A DNA stretch of 64,000 bases from contig CAYRXT010000001.1 of the NCBI GenBank assembly GCA_964428315.1, positions 18,944 through 82,943 of the forward strand. Reading direction: 5' to 3'. Origin of the DNA: an uncultured Planctomycetales bacterium. Lineage in GTDB: Bacteria; Omnitrophota; Gorgyraeia; Zapsychrales; CAYRXT01. This document shows positions 155 through 14,347 of this stretch, in pieces. The position numbers and the translations under genes were made by a program. Each line of letters begins with the position of its first letter. Position 1 is the stretch's first letter. The notes under the pieces are model-generated. The model did not search any database. It was given only the letters and a program-made list of their open reading frames with translations, and had not been told where the DNA came from.

Positions 155-2020
155 ATGGGGGTTATTTATAAATTAACGGACGATGTGCTTCGATTTATAA
201 TCGACCGGAAGAAGGCTGACCCGAACCTCAGCTGCCGCAAACTCGCGGACATTGTCAGGCAAGCCTTTAATATCCATGTTTCAAAGTCTTCGGTGAATGC
301 CGTGCTCAAGGAGACCGGGCTCAGCAGTCCGGTCGGCCGGCACGCCGGAGAGAAAGGGCCCGGAAAGGAGCGCTCCCCCGCGGGACGGAAGGACAGGTCT
401 GGAGAGGGCCGGCGAGCGATCAAGAAAAAGCCCGCGGCAGACCCGGGGTCTGATGAGCTTCCGATGTCTCGCGGATATGCCGTTAGCTCTCGACCGGAAG
501 GGCGAACAGTCGGTGGAGGTAAAGGATCAAGGTTTGATGTCCAGAGTGGACAAAAAAGCATTGTAAATAATGTCCAAAATAGCAAAGAGGCCCTTGCTCT
601 TTCCCCCGAAGGGGCGCCGCCGCGGGATATGAACAGCGAAGAGGCGATCACGCTGAAAACCACTGAGGATCTCGGCGTGTTGCGCGACGCCATGGGCATG
701 TTTTTTTTGAAGGCGGCCCAGTGGGAGCTCATGGGAGACAACGTCCTTTTCCGTTTGTTTAAAGAAAGCCTTCCGGATGTCCGGGACGCGACGGCCCGGG
801 CCGCGGCGGATTTGCTGGTTTACGGCCCGGCGTTGGACATAGACCGCCCTGACAAGATCGTCCTGGCGCGGGAAGCTTTTTCCTGGGTCGAACGCGGTCC
901 GGAGTCCTGGCCGCAGGACAACGACATCAGGGCGTTGCTTTCGCGGATAGAGGATAACGAAGCCATCTGTTTTCATTTTACGAATGAAATCCCCGCGGCC
1001 TTTGCTGAGGCGTCCTGCCTGTGTCTGCATTTGGCCGACGGGTCGCGCCTGTGTTCAGACGGACAAAACGGGGGTATCGCCCGGGAGGCCAAAGAGATTC
1101 AGGGTCCGTCTTCTCCGCTCAATCAGCTGCTGGGGCTCTGTGTCCGACAGGTCATGGTCAATGACGTCCCGTTTTTTGTGCGCAGGCTCCGGGCCGGAAA
1201 ATATTTCGCGCCGTCATTTTTTAATCTGGTCTGGTCCTTTTGCGGATCGCCGCATAAACAGATACAGAGGATCAGCGTCCTGGATCCCGGCGGGCGCGAA
1301 GAGGTGTCTTTCTCGTCGATACCGCATAAGACACGCCGTTTTATCGGCTGTCTCCACGAGGACCAGCCTGTTTTTCAGGATTTTGTCTCGAAAAGACGGC
1401 GCGGCCCGAAGGCGCTGAATTTCCCCTGGACGTCGGAGAAAATCTTTTATGAGGAGATCCCCGCGGAGGTCAACATCCGCCATGAAGAACGAAGCGCGTC
1501 CCTGCGCGCCGTCCTTCTCCTGAAAGAAGACCGCCCGCGGATGGTCCTGCTGACAAACGCCTCCCGCGAGGCCTTGAGCGCCGAATCCCTTGTGCGCGCT
1601 CTTTTAAACCGTTGGCCTGATATGTTGTCGCAGGAAGAGGAAGTTGGCGGAAAAGGCACAGGGCTCCCCTTGACCGACAGCCTGAAATCTCCGGAGGGCA
1701 AAGAGGTGGACATCCAGGCGTTGCCCCCCGATCCCTGGGAATACGGCAGGCTGGTTTTAGCCGGCCTGAACGCCTGTTGTCAGAAATACTATTTTTCACG
1801 GACGGTCAGCCAGTGGCCGTTTTCCGCGCTCAACGAAAAAGTTTACAGGCTTCCCGGCTTCTTAAAGATTAACGGAGAGGTCCTCGAGGTTTCTTTAAAG
1901 GCCGGGAATCTTGAGATGGAAGAAGTCCGGGAGATTAAGCGGGCTGCCCGGGCTGTGACCAATCGCTGCGTTGTCAGTCCCCGGAGCAAAAGGCTGATTC
2001 TGGATGTTGTGGACGAATAA
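155..2020 (+). CDS. hypothetical protein with N-terminal helix-turn-helix-like segment (possible DNA-binding regulator; transposase-derived HTH not excluded)
   Basis: 621-aa ORF from the track. N-terminus 'LTDDVLRFIIDRKKADPNLSCRKLADIVRQAFNIHVSKSSVNAVLKETG' has an HTH-like pattern. A low-complexity Pro/Gly/Arg linker follows, then a ~400-aa C-terminal region with no motif I recognise. No Walker A, so it is not the missing TadA/TadZ. Confidence 0.55.
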   Translation: MGVIYKLTDDVLRFIIDRKKADPNLSCRKLADIVRQAFNIHVSKSSVNAVLKETGLSSPVGRHAGEKGPGKERSPAGRKDRSGEGRRAIKKKPAADPGSDELPMSRGYAVSSRPEGRTVGGGKGSRFDVQSGQKSIVNNVQNSKEALALSPEGAPPRDMNSEEAITLKTTEDLGVLRDAMGMFFLKAAQWELMGDNVLFRLFKESLPDVRDATARAAADLLVYGPALDIDRPDKIVLAREAFSWVERGPESWPQDNDIRALLSRIEDNEAICFHFTNEIPAAFAEASCLCLHLADGSRLCSDGQNGGIAREAKEIQGPSSPLNQLLGLCVRQVMVNDVPFFVRRLRAGKYFAPSFFNLVWSFCGSPHKQIQRISVLDPGGREEVSFSSIPHKTRRFIGCLHEDQPVFQDFVSKRRRGPKALNFPWTSEKIFYEEIPAEVNIRHEERSASLRAVLLLKEDRPRMVLLTNASREALSAESLVRALLNRWPDMLSQEEEVGGKGTGLPLTDSLKSPEGKEVDIQALPPDPWEYGRLVLAGLNACCQKYYFSRTVSQWPFSALNEKVYRLPGFLKINGEVLEVSLKAGNLEMEEVREIKRAARAVTNRCVVSPRSKRLILDVVDE

Positions 2021-2466: not shown

Positions 2467-2495
2467 TTGACGGTTCACATAGTGTGTGCTATATT
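2467..2495 (+). promoter_or_regulatory. candidate sigma70-type promoter for the pilin-operon leader (TTGACG-N17-TATATT)
   Basis: -35 TTGACG at 2467-2472, a 17-nt spacer, -10 TATATT at 2490-2495. It sits in an AT-rich intergenic region upstream of the first pilin gene. Confidence 0.4.
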
Positions 2496-2900: not shown

Positions 2901-3062
2901 ATGCGGTTCATCAAACGGTTGGGACGAAGAGGACAAAACATAGTGGAATACACCGTGATCGTTTCCCTGGTTTCTGCGGCGATAACAGCGATGAGTACCT
3001 ACGTGTATCGTTCGGTTCAGGCAGCCCAAAAGAAAATAGAGGCTGAATTCCGGTCGCATTAG
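2901..3062 (+). CDS. flp: Flp/Fap-family type IVc prepilin (53 aa; below the ORF-track size cutoff)
   Basis: Manual translation gives MRFIKRLGRRGQNIVEYTVIVSLVSAAITAMSTYVYRSVQAAQKKIEAEFRSH. It has the G-XXXX-EY class-III signal motif (RRG|QNIV|EY) followed by a hydrophobic helix. Shine-Dalgarno GGGAGGA at 2888-2894. Confidence 0.7.
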   Translation: MRFIKRLGRRGQNIVEYTVIVSLVSAAITAMSTYVYRSVQAAQKKIEAEFRSH

Positions 3063-3120
3063 TCCTTAGGCCTTCCTTTGAATGTAAGGGAGGGATAAAA
3101 GTCTAAAGGAGGGAAAGTCA

Positions 3121-3324
3121 ATGTTTAAACGATTAAGATCAAAAAAAGCGCAGAGCACCTTGGAATACATCATTCTTGTCGCGGTGATCATCCTGGTCCT
3201 CACGATCTTTCTGCCGGGGATTTTCCAGACCCACTTGACGCAGACGTACACCTACGGGACCAACGGGATGCTCGATATGGCCAACCGCCTGAGAAACTCC
3301 CGGCCCGCGTCAAACGCGCAATAA
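3121..3324 (+). CDS. flp: Flp-family prepilin paralog
   Basis: MFKRLRSKKA|QSTL|EYIILVAVIILVLTIF. The Flp motif has Ala at the cleavage position. AAGGAGG RBS at 3102-3108. Confidence 0.8.
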   Translation: MFKRLRSKKAQSTLEYIILVAVIILVLTIFLPGIFQTHLTQTYTYGTNGMLDMANRLRNSRPASNAQ

Positions 3325-3374
3325 TGAAGCAGATAACTTGTCTATGAGAAGGTTTAATCAGGAGGTGAATATCA

Positions 3375-3752
3375 ATGTTTAAAAAGATAAGAAAAAACAA
3401 AAAGGCGCAGTCCACGGCCGAATACGCGATCATGCTCGGTTTGGTCATCGCGGCGGTCGTGGCCATGCAGGTCTATATCCAGCGCGCCATCAAGGGTAAG
3501 CTGTTCGACGCAACGCAGTTTCTGACAACAGCGGGCGCCAACTTCCTCAGGGACGACGGCAAGGCGACCAGCCAGTACGAGCCGGATTATCTGTCCAGCG
3601 ATTACACCTCGACCAGGGACTCGCGTTTGGAGATATCCCAGGAGGTGAGGGATACTGAGATCGGCGGTGTCGGGCAGACAGGCAGTACCAATTCCACGAG
3701 GACAGGACAGCAGATCACGACCTACAACGGTGCTGATGAGATCGATATCTAA
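3375..3752 (+). CDS. flp: Flp-family prepilin paralog with long Ser/Thr-rich C-terminal extension
   Basis: MFKKIRKNKKA|QSTA|EYAIMLGLVIAAVVAM. AGGAGG RBS. The 125-aa length is unusually long for Flp. The C-terminal part contains 'YTSTRDSR'. Confidence 0.8.
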   Translation: MFKKIRKNKKAQSTAEYAIMLGLVIAAVVAMQVYIQRAIKGKLFDATQFLTTAGANFLRDDGKATSQYEPDYLSSDYTSTRDSRLEISQEVRDTEIGGVGQTGSTNSTRTGQQITTYNGADEIDI

Positions 3753-3825
3753 CGCCGGCTTTGTCCTTGACGGCAGTACGCAACCGTTTACCTGTTGAAG
3801 CATAATTGAGGAGGTGTAAAGAGAC

Positions 3826-4158
3826 ATGTTTAAAACACTCAATAAAAAACGCAAAAGAAAAGGGCAGAGTACCCTTGAGTTCACGGTGCTGATCATCATC
3901 ATCATCGGCGCCTTATTGTCCATCCAAGTGTACATCAAACGCGCGGTCCAGGGGAGCCTGAAGTCGGCCGCGGACGACGTCTCGGATGAACAGTACTCTC
4001 CGGGAAACACCAACTACTCCAAGGTCATCAGTTCGAGCTCCACCTCGAGACAGCAGAATGAGTTTGGCGAATTGACCTCGCAGATCATCGGGAACGAGCA
4101 GACCAACGAGACCATCAACACGCAGATCCACAACACGCAATACGAATACTGGGGTTAA
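3826..4158 (+). CDS. flp: Flp-family prepilin paralog
   Basis: MFKTLNKKRKRKG|QSTL|EFTVLIIIIIGALL. GAGGAGG RBS. Followed by a terminator hairpin. Confidence 0.8.
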   Translation: MFKTLNKKRKRKGQSTLEFTVLIIIIIGALLSIQVYIKRAVQGSLKSAADDVSDEQYSPGNTNYSKVISSSSTSRQQNEFGELTSQIIGNEQTNETINTQIHNTQYEYWG

Positions 4159-4192
4159 TCCTGCGTGAAAACAGACGGGCTTACCCGGAGAG

Positions 4193-4219
4193 AGGCTTTC
4201 CGGGCAAGCCTGTTTTTTT
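4193..4219 (+). terminator. rho-independent terminator after the 4th pilin gene
   Basis: AGGCTT (4193-4198), loop tccgggc, AAGCCT (4206-4211), G, then TTTTTTT (4213-4219). Confidence 0.5.
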
Positions 4220-4322
4220 GGGCAGAAAGGTGGAAAAAAGGGCGGCGCCGCAAAAATATGAACCAGGTATGGACGGCCGGCCCTTTTTGCGACATAACAG
4301 TATAAGGTTGGGTTTGAGCGTT

Positions 4323-4739
4323 ATGAAAAGACGTCTTCTCTTATATACGCGACGCCTGCGGCAGGGGCAGGTGGCCACGGAATACGTTATTGTCCTGGGG
4401 GTGGCGCTCGCCGCGGTGAGCGCCATGGCGGTCCTGGGCAAACGGGCCATCCAGGGCAAGCTGTTCGATGCCAGGATGCACATGACCGACAGCGTCCGGG
4501 GGGCGGTCCAGACCCTGAACGACAGGGGGTACATGGCGGAGGGCACGGTCCTGTATTCGGGATACGAACCTTATTACACCCTCACCAATTCGGTCGTGGC
4601 CTCGAACTCGGTTGACACGTACCGCCTGACGGTGGATCCCGATACCGGTCCGACGGCCGTAAAGGAAACAGACGCCTCATCCCGGATCGAGACGACGAGC
4701 GTCCAGCTTCCGCCGGGAGAGGGCGAGGAGACGCCGTGA
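4323..4739 (+). CDS. flp: Flp-family prepilin paralog (track ORF starts at 4218; an in-frame ATG at 4323 gives a typical prepilin leader)
   Basis: MKRRLLLYTRRLRQG|QVAT|EYVIVLGVALAAVSAMAV. The 4218 start would overlap the upstream terminator U-tract, so I prefer 4323. Confidence 0.65.
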   Translation: MKRRLLLYTRRLRQGQVATEYVIVLGVALAAVSAMAVLGKRAIQGKLFDARMHMTDSVRGAVQTLNDRGYMAEGTVLYSGYEPYYTLTNSVVASNSVDTYRLTVDPDTGPTAVKETDASSRIETTSVQLPPGEGEETP

Positions 4740-4761
4740 GATTTCTAGACGGAGACAAACC

Positions 4762-5112
4762 ATGATGTTAGGCGCAAAAAGGGACAAAGGCCAGTCGCTA
4801 CTCGAGCACATCATGCTGGCCTCGATCGTCATCGGGGCCCTGGTCGTCATGTCGGTCTTTATCCGCCGGGGGATCCAGGCGGCGGTGAAGGTGGCGGCCG
4901 ACCAGATCGGGCGCCAGAACGAGGCGGAATTCCGGGAGGACGCGACGAGCGGCTACCTGGTCAATTCCTATACCAGTACGCGTTCGCGAAGCACCAAGAC
5001 CACCCTGCAGAGGCCTTCCGCGGCGGACTCCCTGGGGTATTTGTACGATGACCGCGTGAGGCAGGAGACTCGGACGCTCAGCAACCTGGGGTTCCGTAAT
5101 ACCGTCGATTAG
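4762..5112 (+). CDS. flp: Flp-family prepilin paralog (EH variant of the EY motif)
   Basis: MMLGAKRDKG|QSLL|EHIMLASIVIGALVVMSV. C-terminal 'YTSTRSRSTK' is shared with the paralog at 3375. Confidence 0.75.
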   Translation: MMLGAKRDKGQSLLEHIMLASIVIGALVVMSVFIRRGIQAAVKVAADQIGRQNEAEFREDATSGYLVNSYTSTRSRSTKTTLQRPSAADSLGYLYDDRVRQETRTLSNLGFRNTVD

Positions 5113-5140
5113 CCCTCCGGGGCGCCAGCTGGGAGAGGAT

Positions 5141-5473
5141 ATGTTTAAGAACATCCGTTCGTTCAACAGTACGCGCAAAGGCCAGACAACGGTGGAATAC
5201 GCCTTTATTTTTGTCATCGTCATCGGGGCCCTGATCGCCATGACCCTCTATATCAAACGGGGCATCCAGGGCCGGTGGCGGGAGGCGGTGGACAGCCTCG
5301 GCGACCAGTACGACCCGACCAACATGGACACCCAGATCACGCATACGCTTGATACGAACATCGAGTCCGTGGTATGGACCGAAGAAAACGCTTACGGCCT
5401 GACGACCATGCGCAACGACGTCGTCGAATCCCTGGACACGAGGACGGGCGACTCCACCGTGAGAGGGTATTAA
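5141..5473 (+). CDS. flp: Flp-family prepilin paralog
   Basis: MFKNIRSFNSTRKG|QTTV|EYAFIFVIVIGALIAM. Confidence 0.8.
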   Translation: MFKNIRSFNSTRKGQTTVEYAFIFVIVIGALIAMTLYIKRGIQGRWREAVDSLGDQYDPTNMDTQITHTLDTNIESVVWTEENAYGLTTMRNDVVESLDTRTGDSTVRGY

Positions 5474-5492
5474 GGATCGGGGGAACCTGGCA

Positions 5493-7133
5493 ATGGAAGG
5501 CGCAAGAGGAGAGAAGAAAAAGGCTCCGGCCATTAACCGCATGCCGACCCGCGCCCAGACCGTGTCGGAGCTGGCGGTCTTCGGGGCCATCCTGATCTTT
5601 GTCATAGGGGCGATGATCCGCTACGCGGTCAACTTTAATTACAACCAGAACCAGCAGCTTGCCGCCATGCGCATGGCTCTAAAGCTTTCTTATCAGGCGG
5701 GAGTCGCAGACAACACCGCCCGGAAATCCGCCACGGTGATTTACATCGAAGACCGGCAGGATGTTTCGCCCGGAAAATACGCTTCGCAGAACCGCACGCC
5801 CTACATCGTGACGGGATCGGGCGCCTTCACCAACGACCTTATGCTCCCGACAGACTGGATGAAGGACAGCGTGCCCATGATGGATATTTTTGTGAACGGC
5901 GAACCTTTTACGTTTTCGACGGCCAGGTACAAGGTCGTGACGGTTGCGCGCGTGACAAATACCGAAAACAATTACGGCTATGATTGTTCTCCGGGCCGGA
6001 GGGACGACGAAGTGCATCCGTGCACGCCGGCGTTTCCGGACGAATGCCCTGATGGCATTGATTACAGGAGGGTCTGGTCCACGGAGAACAACTGGACAGT
6101 TCAGCCGGCGCCCTGTTTTGCCTCCGGGGGCTCCGGCTGCGGCGTGTTCCTTGCGCGGCTCGCCAATCTGCCTTTGTCCCGCGACAAACGGTTTTGTCTG
6201 GTGAGGGAAAGGTGTCCGGTCCATTTTCCGTGGGACATGCCCCTCCAGGACCGTTTCAACCTTGATCTGAGCAGTACGTTTTACACAGGCGGGCGGGGTC
6301 AGAAATGCACGGGTAATACGGGTAATCCTGATTATTGCGACGTCATAGGGTCGGATCTGGCCATGACGGCCTTTCCCTGGCAGTGGGACTATGTGAAGGG
6401 CACGACCTCGGTCGTCAATTTCGGCGAAGGGGGCGTGACCGGCCTGGACGTCGATCTCGACGGCAAGGAAGAGCAGGTGATGGGGTATACCGATCACCTT
6501 GACCGCACTGTTTGGGCAGACGGCAGCTCTTCTTCTCCGGACGAAGAGGAATGTCCTTTGTCGAGCACAGACGCGATCATAGTCAAATTTTACGTCATGG
6601 ATTCCCAGGACGGAGACTGGGACGGAACATTCGGTGATTGGGACAAAAGGTTCCATCCGGATAGGGTGGCACCGGGACTGGCCTCGGAGCAGGCCATGGT
6701 TACCCAGACCAACGTTGAAGGCCGGCGGGGGACATTCCTTCGGATTACCGAGGCAAACAGGCAGTCCCGTTCCGAGCAAAAGAGCGACCGTCTGGACATC
6801 ATAGAGAGGAAGATCCAGCTGAGCAACGATACCGGCCGGCTGTGCCGGAAGAATTACGGTCCCGACGTTGTTTGTTGCTGTGATCCCGCGCAGGATCCTT
6901 TTTGTCCGCCTGACCCGGGGGCAAGCGTGACCATCCCGGTCGGAGGGCGCAGGCGCGCCGTCTACTGGAACTGCGGACCGGAGGCGTGCCTTTCGCAGGG
7001 CGCCGGGGCCCCGATTCCGGATTTGATTTACCGGCATTGCTTCGACCAGAAGACCAAGGTTTTGCACATCCGCAGCCGGATAGGCGAGAGGCGCGGCACA
7101 CGGTGGATCACGGACACCAGCCCGCGGAATTAA
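5493..7133 (+). CDS. TadE/TadF-like pseudopilin with a large Cys-rich (~18 Cys) C-terminal domain; putative minor pilin or tip adhesin
   Basis: N-terminal class-III signal-like 'RA|QTVS|ELAVFGAILIFVIGAM'. The 546-aa size is far larger than canonical TadE/F. Cys clusters include 'VVCCCDPAQDPFCPPDPG'. GGGGGA RBS. Confidence 0.6.
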   Translation: MEGARGEKKKAPAINRMPTRAQTVSELAVFGAILIFVIGAMIRYAVNFNYNQNQQLAAMRMALKLSYQAGVADNTARKSATVIYIEDRQDVSPGKYASQNRTPYIVTGSGAFTNDLMLPTDWMKDSVPMMDIFVNGEPFTFSTARYKVVTVARVTNTENNYGYDCSPGRRDDEVHPCTPAFPDECPDGIDYRRVWSTENNWTVQPAPCFASGGSGCGVFLARLANLPLSRDKRFCLVRERCPVHFPWDMPLQDRFNLDLSSTFYTGGRGQKCTGNTGNPDYCDVIGSDLAMTAFPWQWDYVKGTTSVVNFGEGGVTGLDVDLDGKEEQVMGYTDHLDRTVWADGSSSSPDEEECPLSSTDAIIVKFYVMDSQDGDWDGTFGDWDKRFHPDRVAPGLASEQAMVTQTNVEGRRGTFLRITEANRQSRSEQKSDRLDIIERKIQLSNDTGRLCRKNYGPDVVCCCDPAQDPFCPPDPGASVTIPVGGRRRAVYWNCGPEACLSQGAGAPIPDLIYRHCFDQKTKVLHIRSRIGERRGTRWITDTSPRN

Positions 7134-7197: not shown

Positions 7198-7503
7198 ATG
7201 AAAAGAAAAGTTTATGGTAACCACCGCGGTCATCCCAAGGGCCAGGTCCTGCTCGAGTTTGCCTTCTGTATGATCGCCCTGATGGTTCTTGTCTACGGCA
7301 CGGTCATGGCCTTCCGCTGGTGCGGCATGAGCCTGGTGGGCCGTTCGTCCGCCCACTGGTCTGTGTTAACGAGGGAAGTCAGAGACGATTTTGAAAATAA
7401 TGATCCTGTAAGGCCTGACACCCAAGTTTCGATAAGCTTTGAACGGCCGGCCAGGGACGGTTTCGACTTTGTCATGCCCAACGACGTCATCTATGGAGAA
7501 TAG
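7198..7503 (+). CDS. tadE: TadE-like pseudopilin
   Basis: 'KG|QVLL|EFAFCMIALMVLVYG' matches the TadE/TadG N-terminal motif. 101 aa. Confidence 0.6.
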   Translation: MKRKVYGNHRGHPKGQVLLEFAFCMIALMVLVYGTVMAFRWCGMSLVGRSSAHWSVLTREVRDDFENNDPVRPDTQVSISFERPARDGFDFVMPNDVIYGE

Positions 7504-7506
7504 GCC

Positions 7507-10500
7507 ATGCTGACATCAATGAACAGGTGGATGCGGGGAACAAAGAGGAAGGGCATTTTTTCCGCGATCGGCGGTAGCCGCCGGGGCCAGGTCGCGTTAC
7601 TCCTGGTGATCCTCATCGCCGTCGGCCTGATCTTTTTCGCGGTGACCCTTAATCTGGGCAAGATCGCCCAGATCCGGGTTTACACGACCATGGCCTCAAA
7701 CACGAGCGCGGCTTTCATGGGATCCCTCATGGCCAGTTACGCCGAGAGCATGTATCAAGCGCAGCTTGGCGGCGAAGAGGAATGCGGCGATGACCTGACT
7801 GTTGACAAGTGGTCCGGGTTGGCGGTGGCTATTCTGACGATTTTTGCGGCCATTATATCGGTGCTCACCTGTCAGCCGGGACCGGTTATGGCAGTCGTTT
7901 CTATCATTGGCCTGTCGGCGGCGCTGGGTTCGGCGGCCATTCAGCTTTCTGTGATCCAGCCCGGGCTGGATCAACTGCTTAATACGATGTTCGAGTCCAT
8001 CGAATCGCCGGCCGACCAGTTTGTCGAACGGGGCATCTACACAGCGTTGAGGAACAGCGTCACGGACTCCGAGGTCGTCGATGATATCTATGACATGGAT
8101 ATGGACGGGCTTTTCGCGCCGCATGACAGAGTCAGCCGTTTCGCTTATTATTACACGGCCTTTCGCGTCCAGGATTTCACGCCTCCCACGGCCAACCCGC
8201 AGGCCGTGGCGAATTTTCTGACGGATCTCGGCGAGTTCGTCTATGAGCCGTATTATTACCTTAAAGGTCTTTCTGGTTCGAATGCCTGGCGGGTTCCCCA
8301 TCTGAATGTTCACGGAGACGACTGGGCGCTTTTCTCTCCAGTAAGATGTGAAAATGACATCGCCCACGTGTGTTGCGCTCCTCCTCCTGTCCCACCGTGT
8401 CTGGGCCTGGACTGCAGCGATCCGCAGGCGCGTGATGAACATCCGGAATGCTGTCGCGCTGCTTATAATTTTTGCCGGACGAATACCCCCCTCGATCATT
8501 CCGAATGCTCCAGGGATAACGATGATTTTGAGGATATCGGCCGGGCGTACGCGGAGTGCAACCCCTTGTGCGCCTTCTCTTGGGCGGGGTGCTCATCCCT
8601 GGGGCATTACTGCGGGACAGACTGCTATGATGGGCGTTGCCGCATCTATGACCCGTTTTTCCACAACGACGAATTAGATCCCGGGGATACCCTTTATTTT
8701 AAACCTTTTCTCGGTCGGGACGACGGAAACGCGAAATGCATAGACGATCCAGTTTCCGGCATTCCGGAAGATGACCCCATCGGCGGCGACCGTACTGTTA
8801 ATACGTCCGGCGGGCGGATGGTCACGGACGCGAAAGGTCTGTTCCGTCTTTTGTGGGTTTTCGGCAAAATGGTCGATCTGCGTGAAGTGAACGAAATTCA
8901 TGTCTCCGCGTTTGGCCGCCGGGAACTGTGCGTGTGGTGCAATACGGACTATGAGGCATGTGAAGTCCCTTCCGTCAGGAATCCGGATTTGCCGGATTGT
9001 CCTCTCAGGGCCGTCGATCTTCAAACCTGCTGTGTGCATGAGGGAAACCGCTTCGACGCCGTTCCGAATGCGACGGACCTGGTTATGGATGAAGACGCCT
9101 GTCCGCACCAGCCCGGCATACCTTATGAAGAAAATGCCCACCATGAAGTGATACAGGTCAACAGCCTTTGGAAGCCCGGCGACGACATGTATTGTTCTTT
9201 CGATGCCGTTTCGCCGTATGATGAGCTCTGTCCCTGGCTGCATTGTCTGCCCGGGTGCGACGCCTGTGATCCGGACGGCGGGCCGTGCGCGGCCGACGGG
9301 GCGTGCTATACAGAGCATACGGACAACCCTGCAGGGACTACACTTACCGACCCCTACAATTGGACCCGGGATCCTTTGGACCAGATGTCTATGGAGATCA
9401 ATGAATTTGTGGCCTGGGCGGATTCGATTCTTTCCAAGGATGTTTTGGTCCTGGGCCGGACCGTTGCTTCCTGGTTCCCGCAAGCCTTTTACTGGATTCA
9501 CCCCGAACGGGGCCGTCTGGCTCACTGGCTGGCCTATCTCAGGGGCGTCAAGGAAAAGCTCGAGGAGTGGAGGGACGGCACCTACATCGATCAGGACGGG
9601 ACCGACTGCCTCACCGTGTGTTACGAGAGCGGGGCCAATTGTTCCGATAACACGCCGCCCGAAGGGGTGACGGGAACCATGTCCGACATTGTCGCCTGCC
9701 TTGAAGAATACCGGGACACGTTTGATCCGCAGAACAACACATACGCCAAGATCGATTACCGCGTCAAGTTTCTCCGGGAATACGTAACCGACGATGACAG
9801 CGTTTTGAACAGATTGATCAATGACACGGACGGGACGCTGACGACCGCTATCAGGAAAATCGAGGATTTTCTTACGCATGCTTCCGGTGATTACGGCGGC
9901 GTTCAGCAGATGATAGAAGAATGGGAACGGTTTATGAAAGAAACAGATTACGCCTTGCCCGGACGGGCCATGTACGGCTGGAAGGATACGGAAGAAGACG
10001 GCGGGATGTGGCATATCGTGTACGCTGAAACGAAACTGCCGACGCGCTGTGACTGCCGCTGCGGGAGGCAGGGCCATAACTTGGGCGGATATAACGATGA
10101 TTGTCCAGAATCGGATTTCCCCTATGTGCACCACTATAAGCGTTACGGGGGCTCGAAACGTTATTATTCGCTGGTGGACAGTCTGGACCGGCACGTTGCG
10201 TGCGATGAAGACTCTGTGGGCGATAGGGAATACGATGATGACACGCATTGTTTTCGGGGAGGGACGGTCAAGTCACGCGTTATCCGCTATGACCAGGACC
10301 ACGACTTTGTCGAATTTGCCAATAGATTTCGCATCTGGCGTTTCGTGTACAGCCGTCCGGGCACAACGCCTATCAGCCCGGAAAGGCTTGATTCGGTCTG
10401 CGCCCCCCAGAGCAGCGCTGTTTCCAGACCCGGAGAGGAGGCTTTTCTTTTGAATCGGAGAGGGGATAATCCTCGGTGCTGGGATCTTGCCTCACAGCTA

Positions 10501-10629
10501 TTACGTCGGGGTGTTAAAGATGAGACGTGCGTTGAGTACTTCTTCCGGGATGTCGGCCATTTGGTTGATCTTGCGGAGAGGCGCAGGGGTATTTATACCG
10601 CGTTTACGCCCTGTGAAGGAGAGTGGTAA
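7507..10629 (+). CDS. TadG-like pilus-associated protein; 1040 aa, extremely Cys-rich (~46 Cys); putative pilus tip/adhesin
   Basis: N-terminal 'RRGQVALLLVILIAVGLIFFAVTL' is a pseudopilin-like hydrophobic segment. Many CxxC, CC and CxC clusters. Coding is tightly packed with the flanking genes. Confidence 0.55.
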   Translation: MLTSMNRWMRGTKRKGIFSAIGGSRRGQVALLLVILIAVGLIFFAVTLNLGKIAQIRVYTTMASNTSAAFMGSLMASYAESMYQAQLGGEEECGDDLTVDKWSGLAVAILTIFAAIISVLTCQPGPVMAVVSIIGLSAALGSAAIQLSVIQPGLDQLLNTMFESIESPADQFVERGIYTALRNSVTDSEVVDDIYDMDMDGLFAPHDRVSRFAYYYTAFRVQDFTPPTANPQAVANFLTDLGEFVYEPYYYLKGLSGSNAWRVPHLNVHGDDWALFSPVRCENDIAHVCCAPPPVPPCLGLDCSDPQARDEHPECCRAAYNFCRTNTPLDHSECSRDNDDFEDIGRAYAECNPLCAFSWAGCSSLGHYCGTDCYDGRCRIYDPFFHNDELDPGDTLYFKPFLGRDDGNAKCIDDPVSGIPEDDPIGGDRTVNTSGGRMVTDAKGLFRLLWVFGKMVDLREVNEIHVSAFGRRELCVWCNTDYEACEVPSVRNPDLPDCPLRAVDLQTCCVHEGNRFDAVPNATDLVMDEDACPHQPGIPYEENAHHEVIQVNSLWKPGDDMYCSFDAVSPYDELCPWLHCLPGCDACDPDGGPCAADGACYTEHTDNPAGTTLTDPYNWTRDPLDQMSMEINEFVAWADSILSKDVLVLGRTVASWFPQAFYWIHPERGRLAHWLAYLRGVKEKLEEWRDGTYIDQDGTDCLTVCYESGANCSDNTPPEGVTGTMSDIVACLEEYRDTFDPQNNTYAKIDYRVKFLREYVTDDDSVLNRLINDTDGTLTTAIRKIEDFLTHASGDYGGVQQMIEEWERFMKETDYALPGRAMYGWKDTEEDGGMWHIVYAETKLPTRCDCRCGRQGHNLGGYNDDCPESDFPYVHHYKRYGGSKRYYSLVDSLDRHVACDEDSVGDREYDDDTHCFRGGTVKSRVIRYDQDHDFVEFANRFRIWRFVYSRPGTTPISPERLDSVCAPQSSAVSRPGEEAFLLNRRGDNPRCWDLASQLLRRGVKDETCVEYFFRDVGHLVDLAERRRGIYTAFTPCEGEW

Positions 10630-10898
10630 TTATGGCCGCTTTTTGCAAAACAAGATACGGTTCGGCCATGAGCGAATATGCGGTGTTAATCGCAGTTATC
10701 CTTGCCGCCTTTATCCTGATGGCTCCTTATTTGTTGCGGGGTATTGCGGGGTATTGGAAGGAGGCCGGTGACAGTTTCGGCTATGGCCGGATTTATGATC
10801 CCGAAAGAACAGTAGAATGCGCCTATTCGCCTATTGCAGGGGCGTGGTACAGGGTCGACTTGTACGAGGAGTGCGCAAACAATCTGGATCCGTTCTGA
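10623..10898 (+). CDS. flp: Flp-family prepilin paralog (track start GTG 10623; alternative ATG at 10632)
   Basis: MAAFCKTRYG|SAMS|EYAVLIAVILAAFILMA. Overlaps the stop of the upstream gene. Confidence 0.7.
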   Translation: MVIMAAFCKTRYGSAMSEYAVLIAVILAAFILMAPYLLRGIAGYWKEAGDSFGYGRIYDPERTVECAYSPIAGAWYRVDLYEECANNLDPF

Positions 10899-11068: not shown

Positions 11069-11929
11069 ATGTGGGTCGTTATAATGGCCTTGACATTCGG
11101 ATCGGTGAGCGCCTTATGCCACTACCTGCTTCTGCCTTCGGTGGTGGAGAAGGCCCGACAGGTCAACCGTAAACGGACGAACGAGCTCTCGGACCGCCTG
11201 GACCGCATGTTTATGCGCGAGCAGACCAGCAAGGTCCTTTTTATGTACACTTTCGGCCCCTTTGTCCTGGCCTTTTTGCTCTTTATGCTGTGTCCGCCCG
11301 AGTTCAAGGCCGCCGGTGTGGTCCTGGGTTTTATGGCTGGCCTGGTCATCCCGATGATCGCGGTAAGATCCATGGAGCAGAGGCGGAGGGACAAGTTCGA
11401 CAGCCAGATGGTCGACACGCTGATGATCATGTCCAGCGCCCTCAAAGGGGGGTTGAGCCTCGTCCAGGCCATGGAAGTTGTGGTAGAGGAAATGTCGGAG
11501 CCGACCAATCAGGAGTTCGGGATCCTTCTTGGGGAAAACAAGATGGGAATCCCCCTGGATGAGGCCTTTGCCCACCTCTACAGCCGCATGCCTTCGGTTT
11601 CCCTACAGCAGGTGATCACGACGATTTTGCTGGCACGGGAGACAGGAGGCAACCTCCCGGTTATTTTTAACCGTATCGTGAACACGATCAGGGAGAACAG
11701 GAAGCTGCGTGAAAATCTTAACAATTTGACGCTTCAGGGCCGGATCCAGGGCGGGGTCATGTCGATCCTGCCGATTGTCTTTGCCTCCATCGTACTTTCC
11801 AGTAATCCCAATTATTTCGACAGCATGTTTAACACGGAAATCGGCCGGACTTTGCTGGGGGCGTGCGTCGCCATGGAGCTTATAGGCGCATTTTTAATTT
11901 GGAAGATTAGCAATTTCAAAGACTTCTGA
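11069..11929 (+). CDS. tadB: Tad pilus platform protein TadB-like (T2SS F-domain)
   Basis: 286 aa with N-terminal TM helices and T2SSF-type core 'SSALKGGLSLVQAMEVVVEEMSEPTNQEFGILLGENKMGIPLDEAFAHLYSRMP...LLARETGGNL'. Confidence 0.85.
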   Translation: MWVVIMALTFGSVSALCHYLLLPSVVEKARQVNRKRTNELSDRLDRMFMREQTSKVLFMYTFGPFVLAFLLFMLCPPEFKAAGVVLGFMAGLVIPMIAVRSMEQRRRDKFDSQMVDTLMIMSSALKGGLSLVQAMEVVVEEMSEPTNQEFGILLGENKMGIPLDEAFAHLYSRMPSVSLQQVITTILLARETGGNLPVIFNRIVNTIRENRKLRENLNNLTLQGRIQGGVMSILPIVFASIVLSSNPNYFDSMFNTEIGRTLLGACVAMELIGAFLIWKISNFKDF

Positions 11930-11951: not shown

Positions 11952-12887
11952 GTGGAACCGGTCGGTTTGGGGAGGATACGGTTCATGCTCGGTTTTTCAT
12001 TTCTCCTGGCTTTTATTTCGGCTTTTTTCGTGATTTACGGCCTCTTCGGGACCCACACAGAGGAGAGGCCGCATCTTAGCCGCTTTGAAGAGCCCCAGCA
12101 GAGGAGAGCGCCCAGGAAGAGGCACAGGACGATTGTCGGAAAAATGCTGTCCCGCCTGGCCCTTTTTAACAGGCCCCTGTGTCATAATGTTGTTGGCCGT
12201 CGTCTCGCCAGGGACCTGGGGGCGGCCCAGCTGGACATAACCCCGGAAGAATTTATGCTCTTGAAGCAGGTCCTGATCGTCTTTTTGTTCATGGCCTTTT
12301 TCCCCCGGGCGACGCAGGAGACCCTTGTCTTCTTCATCCTTGTCATTATCGGGGGAGGCTATTACATCCCCGAATTCTGGCTGAAGACGAAGGTCAGGAA
12401 GGTGAAAAACGCCATTATCAAACAGCTCCCCGACACCGTAGACCTCCTGAGCCTTTGCGTCAACGCCGGTCTGGACTTCATGCTGGCCCTCAAGTGGGTT
12501 ATCGACAAATCCCCGCCGTCCATCCTGCTCAACGAACTGAGTCTGATCCTTCAGGAGATCAACGTGGGCAAACCCCGTCGGGAGGCCTTGCGGGATATGG
12601 CCAAAAAGTACGAACTGCCCGACCTGTCGACCTTTTCCCGGACGCTCATCCAGGCCGACCGCATGGGGACCTCCATAGGCGACGCCCTGAACATCCTTTC
12701 GGAGGATATGCGTATGGTCCGCTACCGCCGCGGGGAGAAGATCGCCCTGAAGGCGCCCCTGAAGCTCCTTGCCCCCCTTCTCCTTTTTATCTTCCCTGTT
12801 GTGGCCATCCTGGTCGGCGCGCCGATCATCCTGGATTTCATGTCGCGCAGCACAATGGAATCCATGAGCATCCTGACAGGGGGATGA
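11952..12887 (+). CDS. tadC: Tad pilus platform protein TadC-like (T2SS F-domain)
   Basis: 311 aa; 'LCVNAGLDFMLALKWVIDKSP...ILQEINVGKPRREALRDMAKKYELPDLSTFSRTLIQADRMGTSIGDALNILSEDMR'. Confidence 0.85.
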   Translation: MEPVGLGRIRFMLGFSFLLAFISAFFVIYGLFGTHTEERPHLSRFEEPQQRRAPRKRHRTIVGKMLSRLALFNRPLCHNVVGRRLARDLGAAQLDITPEEFMLLKQVLIVFLFMAFFPRATQETLVFFILVIIGGGYYIPEFWLKTKVRKVKNAIIKQLPDTVDLLSLCVNAGLDFMLALKWVIDKSPPSILLNELSLILQEINVGKPRREALRDMAKKYELPDLSTFSRTLIQADRMGTSIGDALNILSEDMRMVRYRRGEKIALKAPLKLLAPLLLFIFPVVAILVGAPIILDFMSRSTMESMSILTGG

Positions 12888-13086
12888 GGTTAGGGCTAAG
12901 AGATAAGAACTGATGTAAAAACAGCGTATTATCCGGCAGGTCTTTTATTCTCCGCGTCCCCTGTCCTTCGCTTTACGCCCTGCGCTCTATGCTCAACGCC
13001 CAATGCCCCCTATTTTCAATACCCAACGCAAGGCCCCATGCTCTCAGCTTAACCCTTCGCACCCTTTCGCCGGCATCTGCCCTTAT

Positions 13087-13120
13087 AGATTGGACATTTA
13101 TGTCCAATCTGATTGGACAT
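13087..13120. promoter_or_regulatory. perfect palindrome AGATTGGACAT-tt-ATGTCCAATCT plus an adjacent third GATTGGACAT copy; candidate operator site
   Basis: Read directly from the sequence. The same (A/T)TGTCCA(A/T)T motif is paired at 101-130 and 2041-2073. Confidence 0.4.
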
Positions 13121-13667
13121 AAATAGCCCCCCTCCCGTAGTCCGTTCTTCTATTTACACCTTATAGGATTATGTTTTTCTTCTAATGATGCCGGTATTTT
13201 CACCCGTGAAACAGTCTTTGTGCCGGGTGTCCCGGCCTCTGCCCGATTGCCTTAAGACCTCCTTAAGTCCCCCAGCGAACACATGAGCCAGTTTGCGGAT
13301 AAACCCGCAATAAACCGCGTCAGCAAAAAAAATCCTTCCAGAATGGAAAAGCGCGCATTTATAATGAGAGTTTTTTGACAAGAGTGTATAAAAATTTCAT
13401 CAGACATAAAATGACCGGAAAATTAAACAGTTGCGAAAAATCAACAGCTCGTACTAATGAAAATAAGAATTTCTCGACGATAAACAAGTTAAAAAAGTTG
13501 ATAATAAGTCGTGGAACCTGTTTGATAAGTTGCACATAAAAAGCGTCCCTGTGAAAGGTCTTGTTAAAAATCGGCATAGGTATGACTTAATAATTTTTAA
13601 ATTAGAAATAAAATTGTTTCACCAACGTAACTAATTGGTAAATATGATGTTAAAAAAATCCGGCCGC

Positions 13668-13696
13668 TTGCAGAAGCATGATTAATATGGTATAGT
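13668..13696 (+). promoter_or_regulatory. candidate sigma70 promoter TTGCAG-N17-TATAGT
   Basis: -35 at 13668-13673, -10 at 13691-13696, in an AT-rich spacer. Confidence 0.35.
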
Positions 13697-13702
13697 TATA
13701 AC

Positions 13703-13886
13703 GCAAGAACGGAGTCAAAGCATAGGCCGGCAACGGCTTATGGTAGCCCTGAACCCGGAGTGCTAAAGGGAAAGCCACGGAAATGATCACTTTTTTGCAG
13801 ACAAAAAAAGATTTTGTCTTCGCATTATATTTTAATAAGAATATAATGGGCTGCCATACAGGAATGACTGGCAGCCCTTTTTGTTT
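13703..13886 (+). ncRNA. candidate ~180-nt small RNA or terminated leader between the Tad locus and the giant gene
   Basis: Bounded by the promoter above and an intrinsic terminator. No ORF of 60 aa or more lies within it. I cannot assign a family by eye. Confidence 0.3.
13848..13886 (+). terminator. rho-independent terminator
   Basis: GGGCTGCCA (13848-13856), 12-nt loop, TGGCAGCCC (13869-13877), then TTTTTGTTT. Confidence 0.6.
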
Positions 13887-14347
13887 GCCGCCCGTCGGGA
13901 ACCTAGGACTGACGGCGGCAATAGATCATTCCCGGCACAATCATTAAAGAAGGCATCGGCCGGGACAAGTCCCGAGCGCAAGCGAGGGCGCAAAAAAAGC
14001 CACGGAGAAAGCATTGGTAATTTTTTCTACAAACAGCGCGCGCTGTTTTCAACCGCTTCATCTTTTGGACCCGGATAACAACTTCTGTTGTTGTCGGGCT
14101 CTCCGAACGCCATATGATCTTCCCCGCGGCTGGACGCAGATCCTGGTTCCGTTGTTTGAATTATTAAGAGGATGGACCGCGGTATGGCTGCCCGCCATTT
14201 TCACCGATCCGTACAGGCCGGCTCCGGTTCTTGCGAAAACCCATGCCGTCAGGCCGAACCGCGTGTTTTTCCCTCAGGGATCAGAAAAGAACAATCTCAA
14301 TGTCCAGACTGGATATTTATGGGCATTGAGACAGCAAAGGGAAATGG

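Follow-up and report, generated by a model that had tools for sequence, protein, structure and literature searches.

A stretch of 64,000 nt from an uncultured bacterium of the Omnitrophota (contig CAYRXT010000001.1 of assembly GCA_964428315.1, positions 18,944 to 82,943 of the forward strand), hereafter called the window, encodes seven small class III prepilins in tandem and an eighth further downstream. The locus probably encodes the filament subunits of a Tad (type IVc) pilus or secretion machine of an Omnitrophota type. The eight proteins share a signal motif and are homologous to one another, and their genes occur as orthologs in the same order in related genomes, where a terminator behind the fourth gene is conserved as well. 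Genes for two platform proteins follow in the same locus, and genes for an assembly ATPase, RcpC and a secretin precede the pilin genes in a syntenic locus. Omnitrophota are abundant, uncultured, ultra-small and thought to be predators or parasites.

Shared N-terminus of the eight pilins

A scan for open reading frames (ORFs) and a six-frame translation of the whole window, together with an alignment of the eight proteins, confirmed eight small ORFs, all of them on the plus strand, seven at 2901-5473 and the eighth at 10632-10898 (Table 1). The initial annotation, made from the letters of the window, had described seven tandem prepilin genes and an eighth with mature parts of 40 to approximately 125 aa, which agrees with the signal motif and helix shared in the alignment of the N-termini and with measured mature lengths of 42-123 aa. 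The common plan consists of a basic leader of 10-15 residues, Gly or Ala at position -1 and a hydrophobic helix of approximately 20 residues, which is followed by a Y-I/V-x-R-x-x-Q-G/A motif. Glu is found at +5 in all eight pilins. Six of them have Tyr at +6, and the other two have Phe and His, respectively. Except for pilin 8 with Ser, all pilins carry Gln at +1.

A regular expression describing signal plus helix matched exactly 10 times in the six-frame translation of the 64 kb, always on the plus strand between 2.9 and 10.7 kb and always at the N-terminus of an ORF, namely those of the eight small genes and of two further ORFs of 546 and 101 aa. Neither the giant ORF of 50 kb that occupies the downstream part of the window nor the minus strand contained the pattern. 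This confinement of the ten matches to N-termini of the locus is far beyond chance.

In case of two pilins the start position had to be reconsidered. Pilin 8 is likely to start not at 10623 but at the ATG at 10632, which is preceded by a Shine-Dalgarno sequence (GAAGGAG); a gene caller likewise predicted 88 aa. The longest ORF of pilin 5 begins with a TTG at 4218, but the sensible start is the ATG at 4323. In public gene calls an internal GTG start is used for pilin 5, resulting in a protein of 122 aa that begins with MATEY, whereby leader and cleavage site are lost (4323-4739 in the window; L001, 5540-5908).

Pairwise identities within the window amount to 13-29% relative to gene 1. Profile-profile comparison by hhalign related position 1 to the long pilins of type A (see below) with a probability of 97%, covering the signal, the helix and the YxxRxxQ motif, and the long pilins of type B to those of type A with a probability of 99.8%. 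Judged by these comparisons, the members of the array are homologous to one another.

Beyond the helix, Ser and Thr account for 22-27% of the residues in genes 3-7, whereas values of 9-13% were obtained for the remaining proteins of the locus and for the giant ORF. This approximately twofold enrichment corresponds to the Ser/Thr-rich mature domains of the initial annotation, but it is not valid for genes 1 and 8. A YTSTR block ascribed to two of the genes was indeed found, namely in genes 3 and 6. The copy in gene 3 belongs to the motif QYEPYYLxSxYTxTR, which is conserved in type B, and in the position-6 orthologs the block is not conserved. Its proposed role in glycosylation was not borne out, since the pilins contain only 0-2 N-x-S/T sequons each and YTSTR itself contains none.

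Conserved order of eight orthogroups

Relatives of the type-A pilins are encoded in 153 stretches of GTDB contigs with one genome per species. Of these stretches, 80 were retained as related loci (83 fetched loci in some counts), and their six-frame ORFs were searched with hidden Markov models (HMMs) of the pilin set of the window. Eight pilin matches per locus was the most frequent count (43 of 83 fetched loci). The canonical layout, with seven clustered pilin genes and the eighth situated 5-8 kb downstream, was observed in 35 loci including the window, and nearly all of these 35 genomes are labelled Omnitrophota.

For each position of the array an HMM was built from the other 34 genomes, excluding the window. 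Every pilin of the window scored best against the HMM of its own position (80.7-137.3 bits), with 77.9 bits as the highest off-diagonal value. Due to this score pattern, the array consists of eight ancient orthogroups in fixed order and not of recent paralogs. Across the 35 loci, lengths and C-termini differ systematically by position: the mature length is approximately 42 aa at position 1, approximately 56 aa at position 2 and approximately 96-109 aa at positions 3, 4, 6 and 7. In most other genomes position 5 has Glu at +6 through a one-residue insertion, or Gln instead, and the position-8 orthologs are rich in Cys with a median of 8. Gene 1 with its 53 codons had fallen below the 60-aa reporting threshold of the initial ORF list. 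It is nevertheless a real gene, as rightly presumed there, because well conserved orthologs are present in all 35 syntenic loci.

The initial annotation had regarded the genes as tandem paralogs. A recent tandem amplification of a single flp gene, as a source of antigenic or phase variation or of gene dosage (cf. the multiple flp copies in some pathogens), would be in line with the tandem arrangement on one strand and with the shared N-termini. The low identities to gene 1, the own-position orthologs in 35 genomes (80-137 bits versus at most 78 bits for other positions) and the position-specific lengths and C-termini render such an amplification extremely improbable. A recent duplication is rejected by the matrix of position-HMM scores, and the spread of a single near-identical cassette is excluded by identities of 39-62% between the type-A pilin of the window and its relatives.

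Table 1. Location and characteristics of the pilin genes, neighbouring genes and transcription signals in the window (arrow: predicted cleavage site; bit scores refer to the HMM of the respective position).
Feature	Position	Strand	Characteristics
Pilin 1	2901-3062	+	53 aa (mature 42), cleavage G↓QNIVEY; Flp-like; 80.7 bits
Pilin 2	3121-3324	+	67 aa (mature 57), cleavage A↓QSTLEY; 86.5 bits
Pilin 3	3375-3752	+	125 aa (mature 114), type B, cleavage A↓QSTAEY, QYEPDY...YTSTRD motif; 108.9 bits
Pilin 4	3826-4158	+	110 aa (mature 97), type A, cleavage G↓QSTLEF, ends ...EYWG; 137.3 bits
Pilin 5	4323-4739	+	138 aa (mature 123), type-B-like, cleavage G↓QVATEY, carries GYEPYY; 84.5 bits
Pilin 6	4762-5112	+	116 aa (mature 106), cleavage G↓QSLLEH; 106.7 bits
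Pilin 7	5141-5473	+	110 aa (mature 96), type-A-like, cleavage G↓QTTVEY; 132.4 bits
Pilin 8	10632-10898	+	88 aa (mature 78), cleavage G↓SAMSEY; 86.0 bits
Intrinsic terminator or attenuator	4173-4219	+	hairpin and T7 tract
546-aa protein	5493-7133	+	pilin-type N-terminus A↓QTVSEL and helix, 18 Cys; candidate large minor pilin or tip subunit
101-aa TadE-like minor pilin	7198-7503	+	G↓QVLLEF; TadE PF07811 16.5 bits, gathering score 22.9
1040-aa protein	7507-10629	+	46 Cys; N-terminal GQVALLLVILIAVGL helix without Glu at +5; TadG/KilN-like candidate tip subunit
TadB-like platform protein	11069-11929	+	single T2SSF domain, PF00482 E 9e-17
TadC-like platform protein	11952-12887	+	single T2SSF domain, PF00482 E 2.3e-13
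621-aa helix-turn-helix (HTH) protein, putative regulator	155-2020	+	weak HTH_Tnp_Tc3_2 and HTH_32 matches
Sigma-70-like promoter match, best upstream of array	2467-2495	+	TTGACG-17-TATATT with extended TG; consensus match only
Giant gene, 5' part	14348-64000	+	at least 16,550 codons, runs off the window

Family assignment of the pilins

The Flp model PF04964 (Flp_Fap) touches only gene 1 of the window, with 17.3 bits at a gathering score of 32.2. Among the orthologs of gene 1, however, 28 of 29 match Flp_Fap at E≤0.1 (best 3.2e-7). By HMM, gene 1 is therefore the sole Flp-like member of the array, albeit below threshold in the window. A precursor of 50-80 aa, the small size typical of Flp pilins, occurs only in case of genes 1 and 2. 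The assignment of the whole array to the Flp family in the initial annotation is consistent with the class III G↓XXXXE-Y motif and with the Tad-type locus, but not with the outcome for PF04964. Gene 2 passes the model PF04021 (Class_IIIsignal, formerly DUF361) with 24.6 bits at a gathering score of 23.7; genes 7 and 3 reach 20.1 and 14.1 bits, respectively, and thus stay below it, and the remaining pilins gave no match. A search of the eight pilins against NCBIfam yielded nothing useful. N_methyl (PF07963) and the pseudopilin models of type II secretion systems (T2SS) matched neither the eight pilins nor the members of the type-A and type-B alignments; a weak N_methyl match (E 0.018) was seen in one of 29 position-1 orthologs.

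Genes 3-7, which had been taken for unusually long Flp pilins, are members of a separate large family of approximately 100-125 aa for which the Pfam-A and NCBIfam models searched include none. A profile of the eight proteins retrieved 1,446 proteins at E≤1e-3 from an indexed database, typically of 106-133 aa. None of these has a precomputed Pfam domain, and those with a name originate from metagenome-assembled genomes (MAGs) of Candidatus Omnitrophota. Two types can be distinguished. Type A, to which genes 4 and 7 belong, comprises approximately 108 aa with the consensus ...GQSTLEYAvLIIIIIGALLSIQVYIKRGiQGRLKsAxDDIGDQfSPGNTN...QEfWG. Type B comprises 110-130 aa with AQxTAEY...QYEPYYL... and is most clearly represented by gene 3, whereas gene 5 is similar. 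Gene 6 aligns with the type-B set, yet forms an orthogroup of its own.

When 1.84 billion representatives at 50% identity were searched exhaustively with the type-A profile, 4,425 clusters passed a threshold of E≤1e-3, and 1,467 passed E≤1e-10. At E≤0.01, six of 83 type-A relatives match PF04021 and two match Flp_Fap; for type B these numbers are four and zero of 35, and DUF4244 matches occur in seven of the 35 type-B proteins. The N-terminal part of pilin 4 is near-invariant across the family. Pilin 4 of type A is considered the best candidate for the major pilin, and types A and B together are candidate subunits of the shaft.

Nearly all of the 80 retained type-A stretches are titled Omnitrophota or belong to bulk-binning MAGs titled 'uncultured Planctomycetales', a label that is carried by many of the binchicken MAGs with type-A loci. 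Some type-A loci are found in records titled Saccharibacteria, Phycisphaerae or Planctomycetales, e.g., L005 (CAYGMC010000055.1), L060 (BPJO01000031.1) and L073 (SBBO01000024.1). Such titles are probably a matter of labelling or binning.

Predicted structure of the long pilins

AlphaFold2 models based on family alignments were made for one pilin of type A (pilin 4) and one of type B (pilin 3). The N-terminal helix is predicted with confidence, the predicted local distance difference test (pLDDT) exceeding 90 over approximately 30 residues. The model of pilin 4 comprises a helix (16-53) and four short strands with a mean pLDDT of 66.6, that of pilin 3 a helix (3-58) and a long beta hairpin with a mean pLDDT of 68.8 and low confidence in the C-terminal part. 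The models weakly suggest a non-helical, beta-type C-terminal part of the long pilins, which may become ordered only within the filament. Fold matches to the MS2 coat protein, pA104R and others were discarded as meaningless for a model with a pLDDT of 66.

The models show only weak structure in the C-terminal parts, which are polar and contain much Ser, Thr, Asn and Gln. These properties would also suit small, non-polymerising proteins that decorate the cell surface or the giant protein, with the class III signal as nothing but a tag for membrane anchoring or export, and some archaea do use class III signals for the substrate-binding proteins of bindosomes (PMC4858521). We nevertheless consider such a role quite improbable, since Glu at +5 is invariant in the eight pilins and since the helix and the YxxRxxQG motif are the most conserved parts, as expected from the packing of filament subunits. 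Furthermore, the genes are co-encoded with a complete set of assembly ATPase, platform and secretin genes.

Terminator downstream of pilin 4

The terminator that the initial annotation had placed behind the fourth gene at 4193-4219 is real, but extends over 4173-4219. It is formed by a hairpin of 43 nt (4173-4215) with a stem of approximately 19 bp and a free energy of -29.2 kcal/mol, leading into the T7 tract at 4213-4219. The stem at 4193-4211 reported by a scan tool is an inner alternative of this larger hairpin. No promoter-like site was found on the plus strand between 4220 and 4322.

When a hairpin of at most -15 kcal/mol together with a T-run within 150 nt after the stop codon was taken as a terminator, 28 of the 35 genomes have one after position 4, compared to 0-2 of 35 after any other position. 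The median gap downstream of gene 4 is 155 nt, versus 8-58 nt for the other internal gaps. The common stem reads GGCTTAC...GTAAGCC, with variants that preserve the pairing, e.g., GGCTTGC...GCAAGCC, and in some genomes a hairpin of unrelated sequence adopts the same shape. In the 83 fetched loci (1.24 Mb), the core hairpin motif is present in 44, almost exclusively approximately 45 nt behind a type-A gene. Pilin 4 is the only gene of the array with a conserved terminator directly behind it. Due to its conservation across genomes, the terminator argues for differential expression within the array, in agreement with what had been suggested for this site. Kram et al. (2008, J Bacteriol) reportedly described termination after the pilin gene in the tad locus of A. 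actinomycetemcomitans.

Large pilin-like proteins and Tad-type assembly genes

Between pilins 7 and 8 three further proteins of 546, 101 and 1040 aa are encoded. Orthologs of the 546-aa protein retain the N-terminus (G/A)Q(S/T)AxELA(I/V)FG, and the N-terminus of the 101-aa protein is likewise conserved in its orthologs. By position and size, the 1040-aa protein may be regarded as TadG/KilN-like (PMC12075869). The abundance of Cys in the 546-aa and 1040-aa proteins and in the position-8 orthologs suggests extracellular domains that are stabilised by disulfide bonds.

Sequence upstream of the window was available from the same contig in a Logan assembly (L083). The C-terminus of a T2SSE ATPase is situated 1 kb upstream of the window start and is 67% identical to the ATPase of L012, a syntenic locus on a complete Omnitrophota chromosome; a DUF192 gene is located upstream as well. 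For the genome of the window itself, this ATPase fragment and DUF192 are the only upstream parts seen. In L012 the genes are arranged in the order Rotamase_2 peptidyl-prolyl isomerase (PPIase), RcpC, secretin, ATPase as a fusion of ParA/TadZ and T2SSE, DUF192 and HTH protein, followed by seven pilins, the three large proteins, pilin 8, TadB and TadC. Judged by this gene content, the core is of the Tad type (type IVc) and not a T2SS.

The secretin of L012 (1570-3606) carries a C-terminal TonB_C domain. In the ATPase of the same locus (3799-5955, 718 aa), a ParA/MinD domain (TadZ-like, AAA_31) is fused to T2SSE. The DUF192 gene and the Rotamase_2 PPIase gene are fixed members of the locus.

The first gene of the window, encoding the 621-aa protein, is orthologous to an ORF of 569 aa at the same place in L012 (6994-8703), with 61% identity over the first 62 residues. 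It is a conserved member of the locus and more probably a regulator than a transposase. Its HTH weakly resembles those of IS630/Tc3 transposases, but in the distant Omnitrophota genome of L012 the ORF likewise lies between DUF192 and the pilins.

The gene content also bears on the question whether the locus encodes a secretion system instead of an adhesive pilus. The 10-11 pilin-like proteins would then form a short periplasmic pseudopilus, comparable to GspG-K, that pushes the giant protein, its fragments or other exoproteins through the secretin. Such a function is suggested by the tight linkage of the locus to the giant ORF of at least 16,550 codons, the product of which has a transmembrane segment and a C39 peptidase domain at its beginning. 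Passages of West-Roberts et al. describe the linkage to giant genes as conserved and refer to the system as type II secretion-like, and the many different pilin-like subunits resemble a set of pseudopilins or minor pilins more closely than a classical flp locus. However, the single-domain TadB and TadC, the TadZ-type ParA fused to the ATPase and RcpC form a Tad-type core, and a two-domain GspF as well as GspC, GspL and GspM are absent. The pilins lack matches to N_methyl and T2SS pseudopilin models and have Gln or Ser at +1, not Phe or Met. A protein of at least 16,000 aa with transmembrane segments is an unlikely substrate of a T2SS, and the strength of the terminator behind gene 4 implies that one subunit, or a small number of them, is very abundant, as for a long filament. 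Taken together, we regard the pseudopilus as unlikely and prefer the Tad-type filament module.

Proposed assembly and function

The proposed filament module would comprise one Flp-like pilin with a mature length of 42 aa, one pilin of 57 aa, five pilins of 96-123 aa with a Ser/Thr-rich C-terminal part that is predicted to form beta structure, and one Cys-containing pilin of 78 aa. By analogy, genes 1, 2 and 8 are candidates for adapters, and the trio of 546, 101 and 1040 aa probably forms a priming tip complex, comparable to TadE/F/G and to KilL/M/N of Myxococcus. The prepilins would insert into the inner membrane, where an A24 prepilin peptidase encoded elsewhere would cut after Gly or Ala at -1 and expose Gln at +1. 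Polymerisation would proceed via Glu at +5 and the hydrophobic helix, driven by the TadB/TadC platform and the upstream T2SSE ATPase, and the filament would pass through the RcpA-type secretin. Transcription starting upstream of gene 1 would mostly end at the terminator, resulting in abundant products of genes 1-4, whereas read-through would supply small amounts of pilins 5-8, tip proteins and TadB/C. The filament and the giant surface protein, the gene of which follows directly downstream, may jointly serve in contacting prey or host cells.

Several observations weigh against this interpretation. Genes 2-8 did not match PF04964 in the Pfam search, searches of Pfam and NCBIfam gave no match to the 546-aa and 1040-aa proteins, and the homology of the trio to TadE/F/G is weak or absent. 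The C-terminal beta parts of the long pilins reach a pLDDT of only 50-65, no structure in the PDB matched the fold of the type-A model at E≤0.001, and searches of PDB sequences with the type-A and type-B profiles found nothing. The window contains no ORF for an A24 prepilin peptidase, and among all ORFs of the 80 related loci, up to 10 kb on either side of the cassette, the motif GxGD[VAILFMT][KR] gave only scattered, non-syntenic matches. Concerning expression, four genes and not one precede the terminator. In addition, the leader of the array itself holds a terminator-like hairpin (2633-2654, with a T-run to 2665) approximately 135 nt past the promoter match. This leader hairpin could represent a small RNA or a leader attenuator; the folding z-score of the leader is only -1.9.

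It is tempting to speculate that the Tad-derived filament, being compositionally differentiated into a Flp-like core or adapter, beta-decorated long subunits and a Cys-rich tip, is mechanistically coupled to the giant protein of at least 16,500 aa, e.g., by exporting it, anchoring it or presenting it on prey, although we hold this for rather doubtful. If true, the ultra-small predatory Omnitrophota would possess a type IV filament machine that belongs to a new functional class and is specific to them, and they would be a bacterial lineage that retained Epd-like pilins (Gln at +1) with non-helical domains.

Comparison with known systems

The locus type itself is already known. Passages of West-Roberts 2023 (10.1101/2023.11.21.568195) describe a conserved secretion locus with gspD/E/F, rcpC and a PPIase upstream of giant genes in Omnitrophota, and mention 'many small genes ... 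class III signal peptides' in the same locus. Passages of Seymour 2023 (PMC10066038) report Tad complexes across the Omnitrophota and the expression of a complete Tad complex by the predator V. archaeovorus. As far as these passages go, the present locus is of the same type as the giant-gene secretion locus treated there, with its gspD/E/F-like genes, rcpC, Rotamase_2 PPIase, class III signal genes and a GGDEF-bearing giant gene. In the passages of West-Roberts 2023, Seymour 2023 and a 2026 preprint, the small genes are covered by one sentence and an analysis of the pilin set is not contained; these passages mention neither the eight orthogroups and their Flp-like first member nor the family of long pilins, the pilin-like N-termini of the large proteins or the conserved terminator. 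Relative to these passages, the anatomy of the pilin module, the large family of long pilins that lacks a model and the conserved terminator are new. Giant genes and the adjoining secretion locus are the main genomic clues to how Omnitrophota attack cells. The small class III signal genes are now resolved into eight distinct pilins and three large pilin-like proteins, which yields testable candidates for major filament subunit, adapters and tip.

Similar to the Tad/Flp loci known as flp-tad in Aggregatibacter, cpa in Caulobacter and flp-tad-rcp in Pseudomonas, the locus shows the G↓XXXXE-Y motif, a short Flp-like first gene, split TadB/TadC, a CpaF/TadA-type ATPase with a TadZ-type partner, RcpC, an RcpA-type secretin and putative TadE/F/G-like pseudopilins located downstream. 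The peptidase may be situated elsewhere in both; according to Denise 2019 (PMC6668835), a prepilin peptidase may be encoded apart from its system. In contrast to the one to three pilin genes of Tad/Flp loci, eight conserved pilin genes are present, and Flp_Fap misses seven of them. Classical Tad pilins are 50-80 aa long, fully helical and devoid of a beta domain (PMC12075869; passages of PMC11067988), whereas five pilins of the window have mature lengths of 96-123 aa with a C-terminal part that is weakly predicted to be non-helical, and +1 is Gln. The known range of Tad-type pilins would thereby be extended past short, all-helical Flp proteins. Further differences are the fusion of TadZ with the ATPase and the TonB_C domain of the secretin in the syntenic L012, the lack of tadV in the locus, the conserved presence of DUF192, PPIase and HTH protein genes, and the adjacent giant gene.

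The best functional analogue appears to be the Kil system of Myxococcus xanthus, a predatory Tad pilus with a major pilin of 97 aa (KilP) and Flp adapters of 59 aa, in which disulfide-rich trios of the TadE/F/G type act as interchangeable tips and the Kil peptidase processes only some subunits (Herrou 2025, PMC12075869). Both host lineages are predatory or putatively so, and a major pilin of unusual length for an Flp would be common to both systems. The Flp adapters of approximately 59 aa would correspond to genes 1 and 2, and the TadE/F/G-type minor trio, with one short and one very large disulfide-rich member, to the 101/546/1040-aa proteins, as far as a comparison by description allows. Unlike KilP, which is predicted to be fully helical, the long pilins of the window are weakly predicted to contain beta strands. 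The kil genes are distributed among several loci and provide four alternative tips, whereas in the window the genes of eight pilins and of one candidate tip set are united in a single compact cassette, and Kil cooperates with a needleless type III secretion system, in place of which the gene of the giant protein adjoins the locus in the window.

The archaeal Epd pili, e.g., of Methanococcus maripaludis (PF04021), have pilins with a leader of 5-13 aa ending with Gly, Gln at +1 and Glu at +5, and Gln at +1 is typical of archaeal Epd pilins and of Flp pilins of Gram-positive bacteria (PMC3875500). The window resembles them in the leader ending with Gly, Gln at +1 and Glu at +5, in gene 2 passing PF04021, in the many pilin-like genes of varied size and in two single-domain platform genes. 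Different from Epd, the host is a diderm bacterium with a secretin and RcpC in syntenic loci, and Tyr at +6, belonging to the Flp motif, is absent from Epd pilins; furthermore, most members of the family fail PF04021. A peptidase of the type of EppA, the 9-TM enzyme that processes the archaeal pilins, was not seen. The combination of the Flp features Glu at +5 and Tyr at +6 with Gln at +1 fits the Epd-like origin that has been proposed for Tad, the sister system of Epd (Denise 2019, PMC6668835).

Giant gene and flanking non-coding regions

A single frame free of stop codons extends from 14330 to 64000 and contains the giant gene. Its product begins with a transmembrane segment and a C39 peptidase domain (Peptidase_C39), and OmpA, two HATPase_c and two GGDEF domains were also found within the first 10,000 aa. 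Twenty large ORFs on the minus strand (21-63 kb) gave no Pfam match and appear to be shadows of the giant plus-strand ORF.

The whole window contained no Rfam match at gathering thresholds and the 5' leader none at E≤1; the region from tadC to the giant ORF gave only chance-level matches (ctRNA_p42d, E 0.11). A comparison by nhmmer of the leader, the gap between genes 4 and 5 and the tadC-giant gap with the 80 related loci showed no similarity. Except for the short hairpin, the non-coding DNA is too diverged for nhmmer.

The non-coding leader in front of pilin 1 (2021-2900) is unusually long with 880 nt and includes an AT-rich stretch. The tadC-giant gap (12888-14347) comprises 1.46 kb without convincing genes, with an AT-rich middle and a hairpin with a T-run at 13840-13885. 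An element of approximately 60 nt occurs twice, at 2041-2110 behind the 621-aa gene and at 13087-13150 behind tadC, and thereby brackets the block from the pilins to tadC. The exact 9-mer ATGTCCAAT is present four times in the window, with three of the copies as nested palindromes at 13087-13124, and both elements continue with CCCCCCTCC. Either an operator to which a shared regulator binds or a small repeat element is conceivable.

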